IMG/VR virus record: IMGVR_UViG_2606217174_000001
Coordinates: 1 to 10,907 of that record
DNA: 10,907 bases
Origin: a virus
Taxonomy: Duplodnaviria; Heunggongvirae; Uroviricota; Caudoviricetes
Direction: 5' to 3' (one strand)
In this document: positions 7,006 to 10,907 of the stretch, one piece after another
Numbering within the stretch: the stretch's first letter is position 1
Layout: each line of letters starts with the position of its first letter
Notes under the pieces: model-generated
Told to the model about the DNA's origin: nothing
Seen by the model: only the letters and a program-made list of their open reading frames with translations
Database searches by the model: none
Position numbers and translations under genes: made by a program

Positions 7006-7953
7006 TTACAGATAATCCGCGACAACCAGCTCCAGCTTGCCCTTCATCTCGTTAGAGACTGTGGCGTTACCGTCCGCGAACAGCTCGCGCTCCAGCAGCT
7101 GCACCGCCTGTTTTTCCAGCGAGGTGGGGACAACAATATGGGTGGGTTTGATGCCGAGTTTGCGGCCACCGTCAGCCTTAAAGTCACGCATGGCTGACCA
7201 GCCGTGCCACAGCGCATCCAGCGTCAGCGGTGACTGCATCATGTAGGCCATCTGCCAGAAGCCGTAGCCCACATTGCGACGGGCGGAAGCACCGAACACA
7301 AACTCGTTATCAGTAAACGCACGGCCTTCATCGACTTTTGTCTGGGCAACCAGTTCGGCCTTGCGGCGATCCTGATAAATCAGCGGTTTTACCGCGCGGG
7401 AGCAGTCAAGCAGATACCAGGCCGGGCCGCTGTAATCCGCCTGTGCACCGACAGAGCCGGTTTTTGCCACAAACATATTGCTGACCATCTGTGCATCACC
7501 GGAGCCATCCACTTTGGGGTAAACAGGGTGTTCGGTATCAAAGAAGTTCTGGCCGTCATAGCAGGCCGCATTCAGACCATCACGCAGTGCAGCAAAGACC
7601 AGTTCATCCGGTTGTGCCGCAGCGGCACGACCCATTTCCTGGAATAACGGGGAGTAGATGCCGAGATTGTCGTCTTCAAAGTCATCGCGGCTAATGGCAA
7701 CGGTGCCTTCAAAGGTTTTGTTCACGATGGCGTAGCCATAGGCTTTCATCTTCTCGATGACGCGGGAGCCGATCCACTCACGGAACTGCGGGAACTGCCC
7801 CAGCCAGCCGTAGGTGTTGGATTTCGAGGTGGACGGCACGGTCATCGCAATTTTCTGGTACTGCGACGGAGCCATGGACATCCCGGCCTGAAAATCAGAA
7901 CGGTAGCCCGTCATCAGGGCGGTGATCATCGCCGGTGTAATCGGGGTAGGCAT
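7006..7953 (-). CDS. T: major head (capsid) subunit, Mu gp34/T-like, 315 aa
   Basis: The translation (MPTPITPAMITALMTGYRSDFQAGMSMAPSQYQKIAMTVP...) resembles Mu-family major head proteins as I recall them. The start overlaps the stop of the protease/scaffold gene (TAATG at 7953). Size matches Mu T (~305 aa). Confidence 0.85.
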   Translation of the reverse strand: MPTPITPAMITALMTGYRSDFQAGMSMAPSQYQKIAMTVPSTSKSNTYGWLGQFPQFREWIGSRVIEKMKAYGYAIVNKTFEGTVAISRDDFEDDNLGIYSPLFQEMGRAAAAQPDELVFAALRDGLNAACYDGQNFFDTEHPVYPKVDGSGDAQMVSNMFVAKTGSVGAQADYSGPAWYLLDCSRAVKPLIYQDRRKAELVAQTKVDEGRAFTDNEFVFGASARRNVGYGFWQMAYMMQSPLTLDALWHGWSAMRDFKADGGRKLGIKPTHIVVPTSLEKQAVQLLERELFADGNATVSNEMKGKLELVVADYL

Positions 7954-8531
7954 TATTGCATTTCCTCTTTCATTTTCAGGAACTCGGCTTCGGTTTTACC
8001 CAACAGACGTGCGGCGGCGATATCTTCAGCCGACAGCACAGCGGTGGCGGTCTTTTTATCCGGCACGGTTACGGTGTCGGTCTGAAGAGTGGTCAGAGCC
8101 GCAACCGGCTGGCGGGCGTCAAGCTGTGCAGAAAGTGCCGCGACGCCAATCTGTTGTCCGAGTCCTTCCATGTATCCGCGTTCGCTTTTGAAAATGCGTC
8201 CTTCGGACTCGGCCTTATCCAGCAACTGCTCCAGCGTGGTGCTGCCGTGTTGTGCCGACAGCGCGGCATATTCGGTACGCAGGGCGTTATACGTCTCAAC
8301 GGGCACATATTTCGTCAGATCAATAGTGCCGCCAGTTGGTGTGCCTTTTGCGGTTTCCAGTTCTGCCGACAGGCTGGCAACCTGCGTTTTCAGGGTGTCG
8401 TGCGCATCCGCACGGGTTTTGATCCCGGTAAGGGCAGACAGCGCCGCCGTGCCCAGTTCCGGTGTAAATTCGTCACCGTCAGCCACGGTCAGACCGAGCG
8501 CCGTCAGCAACTGGCGTAATTGCTCATTCAT
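7953..8531 (-). CDS. candidate nested in-frame scaffold protein (Mu Z-like) from an internal start within the I gene, about 192 aa
   Basis: In-frame ATG (A at 8531; protein ...SPMNEQLRQLL) is preceded by AGGAG (complement of 8541-8545) with a 9-nt spacer. It falls at the boundary between the globular N-terminal domain and the coiled-coil C-terminal domain. Confidence 0.4.
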   Translation of the reverse strand: MNEQLRQLLTALGLTVADGDEFTPELGTAALSALTGIKTRADAHDTLKTQVASLSAELETAKGTPTGGTIDLTKYVPVETYNALRTEYAALSAQHGSTTLEQLLDKAESEGRIFKSERGYMEGLGQQIGVAALSAQLDARQPVAALTTLQTDTVTVPDKKTATAVLSAEDIAAARLLGKTEAEFLKMKEEMQ

Positions 8532-9071
8532 GGGGGATTGCTCCTGAGAAGGGGAAACGACATAGAGATCATCAGCACTGAGTGCCGCGACAGGGTTCAT
8601 ACCCGTAATACCCGGATCATTCGTCAGGGAAGCCATGCGCAACAGGTAGGGTTCCCCGGTGTCAGCGAAATAATGCATATATGCAGACAGATAGGCATAT
8701 TCACGGTCATCAATATGTTTTTGTGCCTGTGGTGTCCATTCAGGTTTAATGAAAATCCCCTGACCCTCACGCCAGCGGAAGTTTTCCGGTGAGGCCATGA
8801 CAATAGCCTTGAATCCGTTTTTCTGCGCATTCACGGAGTGATGGTCATAATCAATCAGTAACGGCTGATGCAGGGCGGAAAGCCCGGCTTTCATCCGGTT
8901 ACAGGCGGATTCGTTAATCAGCCAGCCTTCAGTCGGTTTTTCCGGGCGACCGTCACGGGCCTTTACCCGACCGGCTGGCATGATCTGACACCAGTCACCG
9001 TCCCCGTCTGCGGACAGGCTGATGGCATTCAGAATGGCATAAGCAAGTTTGGGCGTGTTTTTCGTCTTCAT
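7953..9071 (-). CDS. I: head maturation protease / scaffold protein (Mu gp32/I-like), 372 aa
   Basis: The N-terminal half is a globular domain (…LIDYDHHSVNAQKNGFKAIVMASPENFRW…). The C-terminal half is Ala/Leu/Thr/Gln-rich and predicted coiled-coil, typical of a scaffold. It sits directly upstream of the major head gene, as Mu I/Z does. Confidence 0.8.
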   Translation of the reverse strand: MKTKNTPKLAYAILNAISLSADGDGDWCQIMPAGRVKARDGRPEKPTEGWLINESACNRMKAGLSALHQPLLIDYDHHSVNAQKNGFKAIVMASPENFRWREGQGIFIKPEWTPQAQKHIDDREYAYLSAYMHYFADTGEPYLLRMASLTNDPGITGMNPVAALSADDLYVVSPSQEQSPMNEQLRQLLTALGLTVADGDEFTPELGTAALSALTGIKTRADAHDTLKTQVASLSAELETAKGTPTGGTIDLTKYVPVETYNALRTEYAALSAQHGSTTLEQLLDKAESEGRIFKSERGYMEGLGQQIGVAALSAQLDARQPVAALTTLQTDTVTVPDKKTATAVLSAEDIAAARLLGKTEAEFLKMKEEMQ

Positions 9072-9248
9072 TCCGGCAGCATAAGCCGGTGTTTTTCGGG
9101 GCCGGTTTTGCGGGACTTCAGAAAGTGCTGACAGGGGAAAAATGAGAAAGGCGCTTCACGCAGATTTTAAAGCCCGTTAAATACAGGTTAGAAAATCACG
9201 ACACGCGCCTGAAGAGGGTAAGGTAATGCGTTTGTATACCTTAAACCA
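9072..9248 (-). promoter_or_regulatory. G-I intergenic region; candidate activator-dependent late promoter (analogue of Mu P_I) with an AT-rich stem-loop spanning the G stop codon
   Basis: Largest non-coding gap in the operon (177 bp) and lower GC than the flanking genes. A -10-like TAAAAT (complement of 9164-9169) has no good -35. A direct repeat TTACCTTACC is present. An interrupted inverted repeat GTAATGGTTT...AAACGCATTAC lies at 9223-9252. In Mu a late promoter sits upstream of I. Confidence 0.35.
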
Positions 9249-9722
9249 TTACGGCGTTTCTGTGGCCTTTTTAAAGCGTTTTCTGATTTCGTCCATGATC
9301 TCCTGTTCTGCCACCTGATCAAAGCCCATATACGGACGTGCGCCAATGGCCGCCGGTCCCGGTGGCATACCAGGCAGGCCACCCCACTGATGAATGGCCG
9401 CATAAGGTTCATTTGATCCAATCAGCGCCCAGGTATCGCCATAATCCGTGGTCAGGCGGCGGGCCAGATCGCCGTTCAGCGTCAGGATTTTGCCGGGCGT
9501 GTATCCCTTACGGGTACGCCACTTGCGGTAAGGATCTGACCAGTCATGCCAGCGTTCGCCGTCCGGCTCTTTTTCCTGTTCAAACGCCATTTCTGACGAT
9601 GACAGAAGACTCTCCGCCACACTGCGGGCCAGGTCTTTTCCGCCGCCCACAAACTGAAGCCGGGCAAACACTCGCTGGAGACGCGTAACGTCAACAACGA
9701 CAGTTGCATCAATGGATGACAT
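9249..9722 (-). CDS. G: virion morphogenesis protein (Mu gp31/G-like), 157 aa
   Basis: ORF between the F-like and I-like genes. GGAGG RBS lies 4 nt upstream of the ATG at 9722. Size matches Mu G (~156 aa). Confidence 0.7.
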   Translation of the reverse strand: MSSIDATVVVDVTRLQRVFARLQFVGGGKDLARSVAESLLSSSEMAFEQEKEPDGERWHDWSDPYRKWRTRKGYTPGKILTLNGDLARRLTTDYGDTWALIGSNEPYAAIHQWGGLPGMPPGPAAIGARPYMGFDQVAEQEIMDEIRKRFKKATETP

Positions 9723-9759
9723 ATTGCCTCCGCATAAAGGATGAATATAAAATAAACAG

Positions 9760-9842
9760 GCGGTCAGTGTACGCTTAACTGGTAAAGTCGGTGCCTGCCT
9801 CCGGGTGGATCATGTATGCGGGTTCGCCCCCCGCCACTGACC
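9760..9842 (-). other. structured F-G intergenic element: 9-bp long-range inverted repeat enclosing an inner GC hairpin, followed on the transcript by a U-rich tract
   Basis: Plus-strand cggtcagtg (9760-9768) pairs with cactgaccg (9834-9842). The inner stem gcggg (9817-9821) pairs with cccgc (9829-9833). The minus-strand transcript then reads UGUUUAUUUUAUAUUC before the G RBS. Confidence 0.35.
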
Positions 9843-9843
9843 G

Positions 9844-10907
9844 TTAATCAATTTGTCCTTCCAGCACCTCAAGCATTCCGCCCCGGATATCCGATTTCAG
9901 CTTATCCATATTGATAACCCGGTAAGCATTCACAATCACATCCAGTTTGTCGGGCTGACGTTTCAGACTGTACGGTGCATTAATGGCAATCTGCACACTG
10001 CCATCCTGATTTTCCACGATATACATCAGATTTTTGTGCCGTTTGTCCCACAGCACCGCTTTTGGCTTTGCCAGCATTGCCGGTAAGCGCCCGAAGTCCT
10101 CTGGCATCAGGGCGATGCCGTCATTCTGATGTTTCACACTGTCTGCATGGAGCACATTTTTACCGCTCATCGCCAGCAGGCGGGCCGGTGGCGTTCCCGT
10201 CCGGCTTTCCACTGCCTGCGCAATGCTTTCAGTCATAAAGCCCAGCGTGCGGATATCGTTACCACCTCGCCGGGTCTGCATGATGTTTTTTGCCCAGATG
10301 CGGAACGCCAGCTGCCGCTCCGGGCTGTTGTTCATCTCCTGAACCACCATTTCCCGTAACGCCGGGCTTTTCACCTCGATCAGTTTGCGGATCAGCGCCT
10401 GGTCTGTGCCGAACGCTGCCGAGCCGGGGTTATATGACCAGCCCACATCCGGTGTCATGGTTCTGGTGCCATCTGAATATGTGGTCACCGGCATTTCTCT
10501 GACTTCTCCGGTCTGTTTATCCACGCCAGCCTCAACATTGCGGGTGGAGAGATGATCCTCACCGGATGAAACGGATAACCCCATTGCATCCAGACGAGCC
10601 TGAGACAATGGCCGCACACGGCAGCGGCAGTTCCAGCCATTAGGTGGGTAGTGTGTTTTCCAGAACGGATCGTCATAGCGGAATACCAGACCGTTAAGGG
10701 CGGAATGCGACGGGCGGGTACGGCTGTCCATGACCGCCACATACTGCCAGAACGGATGCGTGTCCGTGTTGTTCATCATCTGCGTGTAACGCCCGGCATT
10801 GTAAGCCACACGGGTGTTCACGTTGTAAATCAGCGCCAGACGACGGGGACTGCCCTGTTGCACTTCTTCCGCGTTACCGTCGCTGTCCACCACAATCTGC
10901 TTTCCCC
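9844..10907 (-). CDS. F: head morphogenesis protein (Mu gp30/F-like; SPP1 gp7-type domain), C-terminal ~354 aa; 5' end lies beyond the right window edge
   Basis: The track ORF 9844..10893 begins at a GTG, but the frame stays open to position 10907 (…GKQIVVDSDGN…). The translation (…YNAGRYTQMMNNTDTHPFWQYVAVMDSRTRPSHSALNGLVFRYDDPFW…PNGWNCRCRV) resembles the F-like head morphogenesis family as I recall it. Confidence 0.8.
   Translation of the reverse strand, partial: GKQIVVDSDGNAEEVQQGSPRRLALIYNVNTRVAYNAGRYTQMMNNTDTHPFWQYVAVMDSRTRPSHSALNGLVFRYDDPFWKTHYPPNGWNCRCRVRPLSQARLDAMGLSVSSGEDHLSTRNVEAGVDKQTGEVREMPVTTYSDGTRTMTPDVGWSYNPGSAAFGTDQALIRKLIEVKSPALREMVVQEMNNSPERQLAFRIWAKNIMQTRRGGNDIRTLGFMTESIAQAVESRTGTPPARLLAMSGKNVLHADSVKHQNDGIALMPEDFGRLPAMLAKPKAVLWDKRHKNLMYIVENQDGSVQIAINAPYSLKRQPDKLDVIVNAYRVINMDKLKSDIRGGMLEVLEGQID

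Follow-up and report, generated by a model that had tools for sequence, protein, structure and literature searches.

Genes and comparison of the G–I region

The window, the whole 10,907-nucleotide stretch of DNA analysed here, is part of a Mu-like E. coli prophage of the Sp18 type and carries its genes on the minus strand. The genes flanking the region of interest resemble G and I of phage Mu (Table 1), and further Pfam matches in the window are gpT and Mu_F. The gap between G and I is the longest non-coding interval among the 12 main ORFs of the window and has a GC content of 48.0%, compared with 56.9% for the window. A preliminary description of this DNA had noted the 177-bp gap and its GC content below that of its neighbours, and both stand as given there. 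Among all 177-bp windows of the sequence, 3.6% are as GC-poor as the gap, and the sequence-wide GC minimum at this window size starts at 9113.

The set of related loci stems from a scan of viral contigs; a scan of genome contigs yielded a single relative. Across the 32 related loci, the gap has a length of 173 to 177 bp, even where the I proteins share only about 70% identity. Taken as a whole, the gap is clearly not a random stretch. It lies at about 47% of the prophage length in Sp18 and AF39 and at 48.7% in Mu. Sp18 itself (L010, 972–39730; G–I gap at 19234–19409) is the sole Mu-like prophage annotated in E. coli O157:H7 Sakai. The gap of the window differs from that of Sp18 at 16 positions, four of which fall into the presumed gyrase-site core and none into the 60 bp from 9208 to 9149, where both alleles are identical. 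Neither a tRNA nor a tmRNA was found at the gap, small ORFs were found nowhere inside it, and an Rfam search of 8800–10000 gave zero matches at E ≤ 1. Folded as a whole, the RNA of the gap has a z-score of −1.4.

Table 1. Positions of genes and of observed or predicted elements in and around the G–I gap
Feature	Position	Strand	Basis
G-like ORF	9249–9722	minus	ORF list; Pfam Phage_tail_S
I-like ORF	7953–9071	minus	ORF list; Pfam Mu-like_Pro
G–I intergenic gap, 177 bp	9072–9248	minus	ORFs and Pfam
Presumed gyrase-site core (G-segment)	9209–9248	minus	alignment to Mu cut site 17879/17880
Conserved island, proposed right arm of strong gyrase site	9149–9208	strand-neutral	conservation, Mu homology
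Terminator-like RNA element: hairpin 9210–9149 and U-rich tail 9148–9137	9137–9210	minus (sense)	fold
Predicted Mor/C-family activator box TTTCTGAAGTCCCGCAAAAC, 20 bp	9105–9124	minus	recurrence, weight matrix, clade variants
Inverted repeat CCGGC-TTATGCT-GCCGG around −10	9073–9089	minus	sequence
Predicted −10 hexamer TATGCT	9078–9083	minus	spacing, alignment
Predicted transcript start A9071 or A9072 at I start codon ATG (9071–9069)	9069–9072	minus

The conserved island and the strong gyrase site of Mu

The island 9208–9149 is nearly invariant: 3 of its 60 columns vary among the 19 unique alleles (π 0.005). Third codon positions in the same comparison have π values of 0.089 in G and 0.265 in I, which places the variability of the island about 18-fold below that of the third codon positions of G. 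The island features three A/T tracts with a spacing of about 11 bp, namely ATTTTCTAA (9196–9188), TATTTAA (9183–9177), and TTTAAAAT (9171–9164). With the Mu gap as query, nhmmer returns a single match in the window, 9213–9134 (E 1.1e-4), which aligns to Mu 17895–17975, or positions +15 to +95 relative to the site of the Mu cut. The gap of a Citrobacter-like clade also matches Mu (17894–17943, nhmmer E 0.002), and a block of the form GATTTT.TAA.C.GT.TTT.AACGG is common to the window, Mu, and this clade.

In the Mu records, the gyrase cut is annotated 20 bp past G, within the G–I gap. The strong gyrase site of Mu and Sp18 (Pato, Howe & Higgins 1990; Oram & Pato 2004; Oram et al. 2006) shares with the present region its placement between G and I, just left of the prophage center, and its right arm is homologous in sequence to the island. 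According to a review, the Mu site's right arm is essential and the left arm can be changed, and the site of the Mu-like prophage of O157:H7 Sakai is the only foreign one able to substitute for that of Mu. We infer that the Sakai fragment tested in this way corresponds to the gap described here. For the allele of the window, function as a strong gyrase site is predicted by homology, conservation, and position and is the most likely assignment. The preliminary description overlooked this function, which is the best documented one for a G–I region of the Mu type.

The presumed core between the island and G behaves differently from the island: 8 of its 40 columns vary (π 0.075), which is near neutral. 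Such variability agrees with reports that the Mu site tolerates changes beyond its right arm, and the pattern of a right arm under constraint beside a freely varying core parallels the reported genetics of the Mu site. The core does not convincingly resemble the Mu cut site. The exact cleavage position is therefore a guess; the 4-bp stagger may lie near 9229–9226, a placement good to a few bases only. Three further measures were discarded or do not discriminate. In a strong/weak (S/W) match to the 133-bp gyrase consensus, used as a proxy, the gap ranks seventh of 10,775, but the Mu control site ranks only 28th of 36,585. By A/T periodicity (10–11.3 bp), the gap falls into the top 0.2–1.5% of the window, and Mu as the control does no better; both sites lie within the top 0.2–2%, and neither is unique. 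A dinucleotide deformability calculation was dropped as well since the scale used failed to return the percentiles published for Mu.

The presumed core also contains TTACCTTACC (9226–9217) and most of a 30-nt interrupted hairpin (9252–9223), both of which had been pointed out in the preliminary description. The direct repeat is present but does not exceed chance: when the gap is shuffled, 12% of the resulting sequences contain an immediate 5-mer duplication, and the window holds about 0.24 of them per 177 bp. The hairpin likewise exists but is weak (−5.0 kcal/mol; z −2.3; equalled by 7 of 200 shuffles) and is not conserved, being lost or replaced in close relatives such as Sp18, L012, and L016.

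The island coincides exactly with a second, far more stable RNA structure. The hairpin 9210–9149 is long and imperfect, is closed by GGCGC/GCGCC, and has a ΔG of −23.7 kcal/mol (z −3.7); none of 200 shuffles is as stable. It is followed by the U-rich tail UUCUCAUUUUUC. With 62 nt and several internal loops, it is atypical for a terminator, and a simple terminator scan did not report it because of a loop limit of 8 nt. All three variable positions of the island are unpaired in this hairpin. Because of the coincidence of island and hairpin, the conservation of the island could owe something, or everything, to a function of the RNA. The Mu record carries a TransTermHP-predicted terminator (17908–17953) at the equivalent place, which shares with the element of the window the operon boundary, the sense strand, the GC-closed hairpin, and the U-rich run of a Rho-independent terminator. 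Compared with it, the hairpin in Sp18-type phages is distinguished by its length and internal loops and by being co-extensive with the gyrase right arm. The Citrobacter-like clade features a different, non-homologous hairpin and T run directly downstream of the common block, and a hairpin with a T run recurs in all three clades. As judged by the fold, the hairpin and U run probably end or attenuate the upstream lys-to-G transcript. A termination structure within the gap, as had been suggested, is retained as a terminator-like element, but it maps to 9210–9149 and its U-rich tail rather than to 9223–9252.

A predicted late promoter of gene I

The I-proximal part of the gap features the 20-bp box TTTCTGAAGTCCCGCAAAAC, located at −53 to −34 if 9071 is taken as +1. 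The box pattern occurs once in the window, with 0.04 copies expected, and three times in the near-identical prophage L002, with 0.08 expected. The three copies precede lys, I, and a gene after the invertase, i.e., a third operon. A weight matrix built exclusively from lys promoters selects the I box as its top match in the window (13.2 bits compared with 3.3 for the next), and the I site is its best non-training match in two prophages; on the plus strand of Mu, the start of the P_P feature ranks third. In addition, the letters of the box differ between the clades in identical fashion at lys and at I. A P_P-like copy of the box was not found in this phage type.

Downstream of the box, the distance from the start of CCGCAAA to a −10 hexamer is 30 bp both at I and at lys (TACGCT) and 29 bp at the third promoter (TATTCT). 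The Citrobacter-like clade has TAAGCT or TACGAT at the same place, and MAFFT pairs TATGCT with CAAACT, the −10 of Mu P_I. A −35 element is lacking at I, where ACCGGC occupies −35 to −30, and 8800–9500 contains no promoter that matches the sigma-70 consensus in full. Conservation follows these elements: 2 of 20 columns vary in the box and 1 of 15 in the stretch from the −10 to the ATG, compared with 8 of 21 in the spacer and 14 of 24 in 9148–9125. A different counterpart of the Mu −10 CAAACT was also considered, namely CCCGCAAAAC (9113–9105), since both lie 32–33 nt from the start codon. It was dropped because the box recurs 29–30 bp upstream of TAYNCT at the lys and third promoters and because of the MAFFT pairing.

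The closest known promoters are the late promoters of Mu, P_I, P_lys, P_P, and P_mom (Margolin, Rao & Howe 1989; Chiang & Howe 1993; Jiang & Howe 2008), which lack a −35 and combine a −10 with a C site centered at −43.5, of which −52 to −34 is required. The imperfect dyad of the window lies at almost the same place, and the element shares with P_I the position directly upstream of I and the −10 without −35. As in Mu, the box is also found at the lys promoter beside the gene of the activator, a 140-aa protein of the Mor/C family: In prophage AF39 (99.6% identity in the compared region), this gene lies just upstream of lys; the window does not include it. The two systems differ in several respects. 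The activator shares only 40% identity with Mu C (28% with Mor), this prophage type has one Mor/C gene and Mu has two, and Mu places late promoters at P and com/mom, whereas here the third box precedes the gene after the invertase. The Mu box reads ...CATAAYCCC or TTAT-N5-6-ATAA, in contrast to TTTCTGA-N4-CCGCAAA here. The strict pattern TTAT-N5-6-ATAA has no match in the window; in Mu itself, it matches P_mom alone among the four late promoters. The I box is thus not a site for Mu C and presumably serves the prophage's own activator. Taken together, 9124–9078 is most likely an activator-dependent late promoter with the architecture of Mu P_I, as predicted from recurrence, spacing, and alignment.

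The hexamer is separated from the ATG of I by 6 nt in Sp18-like loci and by 7 nt in the Citrobacter-like clade, and the position of this ATG is kept in all clades. A Shine–Dalgarno sequence is absent at I and present at 9 of 11 ORFs of the window. The mRNA of I would accordingly be leaderless or carry a leader of 1–2 nt, unlike the transcript from Mu P_I with its leader of about 26 nt and its Shine–Dalgarno sequence. Such a start would be unusual for a major morphogenetic operon, and its prediction derives from the hexamer spacing and the missing Shine–Dalgarno sequence only. The inverted repeat around the −10 pairs in the same register in the Citrobacter-like clade, with 83% of the cells paired and one compensatory cell; its covariation is no better than that of shuffles. 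Read on the plus strand, this repeat resembles a terminator site.

The preliminary description had proposed a late promoter without a −35 in this gap. In kind, this proposal agrees with the promoter predicted here, but the location moves to 9124–9078 with TATGCT as −10. A transcript start 80–100 nt upstream of 9071 is at odds with the start at about 9071–9072 that this hexamer predicts. The comparison with Mu P_I and the C sites that it had called for gives an alignment of the P_I −10 to TATGCT and no match to Mu C's strict consensus.

A proposed composite cis-acting region and its alternatives

We consider it probable that the gap combines the central strong gyrase site of the prophage with an activator-dependent late promoter for I in one composite cis-acting region. 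Homology, conservation, recurrence of the box, and positions come from the present comparison; gyrase function in Mu and Sakai and the C-dependence of Mu P_I come from the literature. We infer the exact cleavage position, termination at the hairpin, the precise point where transcription starts, and translation of I without a leader. In the proposed mechanism, the G-proximal two thirds of the gap would act as the gyrase site: DNA gyrase of the host would place its cleaved G-segment near the G end (around 9230) and wrap the A/T-phased right arm as T-segment, and the wrapped arm would allow for highly processive supercoiling that helps the two prophage ends to meet for replicative transposition. 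The RNA of these 60 bp would, in Sp18-type phages, form the hairpin that, with its U run, probably ends or attenuates the lys-to-G transcript. The I-proximal third would be the late promoter of the head and tail operon, where the prophage's own Mor/C-family activator, as a dimer, would occupy the imperfect dyad and recruit sigma-70 RNA polymerase to TATGCT without a −35, with transcription beginning at, or 1–2 nt from, the start codon of I. A more specific version is tentative and, taken as a whole, rather doubtful: the 60-bp block may be read doubly, as gyrase right arm driving the synapsis of the prophage ends in DNA and as terminator closing lys-to-G in RNA; the I protease mRNA may be leaderless and lack a Shine–Dalgarno sequence, which would keep full-length protease sparing relative to the downstream head proteins; and a single Mor/C-type activator may control all late transcription through a CCGCAAA box distinct from that of Mu C.

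An island that is solely an intrinsic terminator or RNA stability hairpin (9210–9137) for the lys-to-G transcript, with no special role for gyrase at this allele, would account for the stable fold followed by a U-rich tail, for the unpaired state of all three variable positions, for the predicted terminator of Mu at the same place, and for the hairpin and T run of all three clades. We regard it as unlikely, however. The phased TTTGAAAC repeats that the Citrobacter-like clade keeps in common with Mu lie outside the terminator-like hairpin of that clade, which argues for conservation of the phased block independently of hairpin formation; the Sakai allele, identical over the island, is reported as a gyrase site replacing that of Mu; and the internal loops of the 62-nt hairpin are atypical for a terminator. 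Conversely, the gyrase site might come without a promoter, with readthrough from the lys promoter serving I and the downstream genes, and the box being fortuitous or vestigial. The lack of both leader and Shine–Dalgarno sequence at the predicted start is unusual and would be explained in this way, as would the absent Mu C consensus, and the missing P_P-like copy of the box makes long transcripts plausible in this phage type. Against this improbable reading stand the box, its fixed spacing, and a TAnnnT hexamer, which are kept in two clades at 70% protein identity while the spacer varies freely; the selection of the I site by an independent, lys-derived matrix; the letters of the box, which change in step at lys and I; and the alignment with the experimentally mapped P_I, which supports homology. 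The terminator-like element upstream would, moreover, make an internal promoter necessary.

A late promoter with TAAAAT (9169–9164) as its −10, a start 80–100 nt upstream of I, and processing or termination by the hairpin 9252–9223 corresponds to the preliminary description and is very improbable. TAAAAT is present as the complement of 9164–9169, makes a good −10-like hexamer without a −35, and sits in a strongly conserved block, and the hairpin is slightly more stable than shuffles. Yet the hexamer is part of the TTTAAAAT tract, in the 3′ arm of the long hairpin and in the right-arm block, and it is preceded by no copy of the box that the lys promoter and the third promoter have in common. 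It aligns to TATGAAT in the gyrase right arm of Mu, whereas the mapped −10 of P_I aligns to TATGCT; the Citrobacter-like clade has TTGAAAA or TTGCGA at its position and keeps no TAnnnT hexamer; and the hairpin 9252–9223 is disrupted in the three close relatives named above. That the gap is a neutral spacer without any cis-acting function is scarcely credible. The weakness of the individual small motifs is all that speaks for it, and the conservation data already contradict it: the gap keeps its length in 33 loci, the window and Mu among them, two islands are far less variable than synonymous sites, and homology to Mu extends across about 50% protein divergence.

The region under the preferred composite reading is of a known kind, and existing knowledge of Mu is not overturned. 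For annotation, the gap is better labelled as central strong gyrase site and late promoter of I than as an unexplained spacer. The comparison supplies a candidate recognition box for the late activator of Sp18-type phages and a predicted leaderless late mRNA. With their invariant right arm and variable core, the natural alleles are useful for the question of what makes a gyrase site strong. Sp18-type prophages occur in about 4% of complete E. coli genomes (228 of 5,426), O157:H7 included.

Conserved G–I gap of an Sp18-type prophage

All long ORFs of the window lie on the minus strand. A 501-bp query spanning the gap between G and I matches 228 of 5,426 complete E. coli genomes—strain AF39 being the top match with 99.6% and O157:H7 strains following at ~95.7%—and matches phage Mu in the coding part of G only, at 71%. 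The homologous element of E. coli O157:H7 Sakai is annotated as "prophage Sp18, Mu-like phage"; the window is therefore a fragment of an Sp18-type transposable prophage.

The non-coding gap of 177 bp described in the preliminary description was confirmed at 9072–9248; no other non-coding stretch among the main ORFs of the window is as long. Its low GC content was borne out as well, with 48.0% compared with 56.9% for the window and only 3.6% of 177-bp windows equally low. Taken as a whole, the gap is no accident: 32 related loci (from E. coli genomes, viral contigs, and Citrobacter braakii) keep a length of 173 to 177 bp, even with an I protein of ~70% identity; the G–I gap of Mu measures 196 bp. 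The gap features no Rfam family match at E ≤ 1, no tRNA or tmRNA, and no ORFs except mechanical ones that overlap the neighboring genes, and, folded as RNA over its full length, it shows no unusual stability (z −1.4). The direct repeat TTACCTTACC is present at 9226–9217, but a tandem 5-mer of this kind is no more than expected by chance, occurring in 12% of shuffles.

Judged by its sequence, the gap appears to be the Sp18-type counterpart of the Mu G–I region. It probably features a central strong gyrase site, with a right arm that also forms a terminator-like hairpin, and, downstream of this site, a late promoter of I that depends on an activator. The allele is new; the type of region is known and partly characterized by experiment. 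What is modestly new, and testable, is the box for the activator, the prediction of a leaderless start, and the putative double use of the right arm as DNA and RNA.

Features of the window, of related prophages, and of the Mu G–I region, with variation among Sp18-type alleles
Feature	Position	Strand	Source or context	Variable columns	pi
Mu F-like	9847–10893	−	Pfam		
Virion morphogenesis family (Mu G)	9252–9722	−	Pfam		
"Mu-like prophage I protein"	7956–9071	−	Pfam		
gpT	7009–7953	−	Pfam		
G third codon positions				43/157	0.089
Stretch adjoining G	9248–9209			8/40	0.075
Island	9208–9149			3/60	0.005
Stretch downstream of island	9148–9125			14/24	0.198
I third codon positions				83/133	0.265
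Box copy a			AF39 prophage, after single Mor/C-family gene, before lys		
Box copy b	9124–9105	−	AF39 prophage, G–I gap (window position)		
Box copy c	L002 (AF39 prophage) 36242–36262; L010 (Sp18) 35361		After invertase gene, upstream of 2-kb gene (DUF6645 in AF39)		
Single Mor/C-family gene	L002 11674–12096; L010 11020–11445		Sp18-type prophages, between gemA-like gene and lys		
Mu "gyrase cut site"	17879/17880		Mu records, 20 bp after G		
Mu predicted terminator	17908–17953		Mu records, between G and I		
Mu late promoter P_I	17977–18043		Mu records, between G and I		

Further features of the window concern its genes and the other spacers. A mosaic junction lies inside I: the window and AF39 are 99.6% identical from 9400 down to 8913 and diverge beyond, with overall identities of 79% for the I protein and 100% for G. 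Two other contigs, L012 and L038, carry the closest I alleles (93%). The F–G spacer at 9723–9843 comprises 121 bp, whereas F and G overlap in Mu. RefSeq carries a "tRNA-OTHER" at this spacer of AF39 on the opposite strand (L002 19559–19638); in the window, the spacer yielded no tRNA by ARAGORN, no Rfam match at E ≤ 1, and no RNA fold better than shuffles (z +0.2). The ORFs of the tail assembly chaperone and the tape measure leave an apparent gap of 127 bp between them (2854–2980). In Mu, a frameshifted extension of the chaperone spans the equivalent stretch, as may be the case for the window.

Proposed right arm of a gyrase site and overlapping hairpin

The strong gyrase site of Mu is, according to the literature, needed for efficient replicative transposition and has to be positioned centrally; its right arm is essential, and removal or alteration of its left arm is tolerated. 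The only foreign site able to replace it is, as stated in a review, that of the Mu-like prophage of O157:H7 Sakai. In Sp18 and AF39, the gap is situated 47% of the way along the prophage; the value for Mu is 48.7%. Variation was measured on an alignment of 19 unique Sp18-type alleles (Table), and none of the 16 gap positions differing between the window and Sp18 falls within the island. The primary paper on the Sakai site, Oram and Pato 2004 (J Bacteriol 186:4575), reportedly also observed its cleavage by gyrase in vitro and in vivo.

With the whole Mu gap as a query against both window strands, nhmmer yielded a sole significant match at 9213–9134 (E 1.1e-4), which aligns to Mu 17895–17975, i.e., to +15 to +95 relative to the cut of Mu and, hence, to the right arm. 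The probable gyrase site had been missed in the preliminary description. The gap of the more distant Citrobacter-like clade also matches Mu 17894–17943 (E 0.002), and the block GATTTT.TAA.C.GT.TTT.AACGG is common to all three. In the Citrobacter-like clade, this block is a plain run of ~11-bp repeats, TTTTGAAAC.G, resembling the phased bending signal described for the right arm of Mu. The hexamer TAAAAT, earlier taken for a promoter −10, is present at 9169–9164 but constitutes the third A/T tract of this conserved series. Alignment to the Mu cut site places the 4-bp stagger near 9229–9226, a position that is only a guess because the core is dissimilar to Mu and variable among Sp18-type alleles. 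The variable core positions (9235, 9234, 9230, 9229, 9228, and 9224) cluster around the cut predicted from Mu. Among the nuB mutants of Mu, in which gyrase cleaves the site more efficiently, one change is located 2 bp away from the cut annotated there. Direct computational tests of gyrase preference gave no discrimination, even for the site of Mu itself.

On the sense strand, 9210–9149 forms a long hairpin closed by GGCGC/GCGCC, with −23.7 kcal/mol, a z of −3.7, and a stability reached by none of 200 shuffles; the tail UUCUCAUUUUUC comes next. The three variable positions of the island are all unpaired in it. Mu carries its predicted terminator at the same relative place, and in the Citrobacter-like clade another hairpin, AAAATGGATC...GATCCATTTT, with a T run, lies just downstream of the phased block. 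A terminator-like element between G and I thus recurs in the three clades with a different sequence in each, and the phased block is conserved irrespective of its membership in a hairpin. We read this as an overlap of two functions—gyrase arm and putative terminator—in Sp18-type phages, the gyrase role being better documented than the putative terminator activity. The termination structure proposed earlier was right in kind but assigned to the wrong bases: the hairpin at 9252–9223 exists, yet it is weak (−5.0 kcal/mol, z −2.3) and is lost in Sp18 and the related loci L012 and L016.

Predicted activator box and probable late promoter of I

The box TTTCTGA-N3-YCCGCAAAWCC occurs in three copies in the AF39 prophage—which shares 99.6% identity with the window across the compared region—with 0.08 expected by chance. 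The third copy is not at com/mom, and no copy was found at a P_P-like position inside the N homologue. The copies are followed by the hexamers TACGCT, TATGCT, and TATTCT, 29 to 30 bp from the start of CCGCAAA. With +1 at 9071, the window box extends from −53 to −34, with ACCGGC in the −35 region. Late promoters of Mu are described in the literature as having a −10 and no −35, with C binding an imperfect dyad centered at −43.5 and −52 to −34 being required; the window layout corresponds to this architecture. Each of the four annotated Mu late promoters, compared here, is a 67-bp feature beginning 41 bp before its own −10 (TAGACT, CAAACT, TATCCT, and TAAGAT). In the MAFFT alignment, TATGCT falls opposite CAAACT, the −10 of P_I, and the right half-box falls opposite GCATAACCCC of Mu.

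A weight matrix trained solely on lys promoters (eight distinct alleles from Sp18-type and Citrobacter-type prophages) scores highest in the window at 9124 on the minus strand, with 13.2 bits compared with 3.3 for the next site. The G–I site is also its best non-training match in AF39 and Sp18, and on the plus strand of Mu its third-best match is the exact start of the P_P feature (L003 27287). This suggests a promoter architecture common to Sp18-type prophages, Citrobacter-type prophages, and Mu. The late promoter anticipated upstream of I holds up in kind, with the box and TATGCT in place of TAAAAT. The box (2 of 20 columns variable) and the stretch from −10 to ATG (1 of 15) are conserved, whereas the spacer is free (8 of 21).

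The lys and I boxes both read TTACTGA...TACCGCAAA in the Citrobacter-like clade and both TTTCTGA...YCCGCAAA in the Sp18-type, as co-evolution with the respective activator would give. An Sp18-type activator with only 40% identity to Mu C (28% to Mor) is consistent both with the changed box and with the lack of any strict match to the Mu C consensus TTAT-N5-6-ATAA. Mu features separate Mor and C with the middle operon between, whereas Sp18-type prophages have one Mor/C-family gene; their regulatory cascade may be one tier shorter.

Since 6 nt (Sp18-type) or 7 nt (Citrobacter-like) lie between the end of the −10 and the conserved start codon of I, the transcript start is predicted at the A of the ATG or 1 to 2 bases before, and not ~80 to 100 nt upstream of 9071 as previously suggested. 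I lacks a Shine–Dalgarno motif, which 9 of 11 window ORFs have, and Mu I differs by a leader of ~26 nt with AGGA. From the predicted start and the lack of this motif, we infer, coherently but only by inference, a leaderless I mRNA. The inverted repeat CCGGC-TTATGCT-GCCGG (9073–9089, 5-bp arms) brackets the predicted −10 just before the start codon. Its covariation is not beyond shuffles. In the Citrobacter-like clade, other bases, GACCG(CC)/(GG)CGGTC, pair in an unchanged register; in Mu, a different repeat, of 7 bp, lies just ahead of the Shine–Dalgarno motif. On the plus strand, the repeat at 9073–9089 reads as a terminator-like site.
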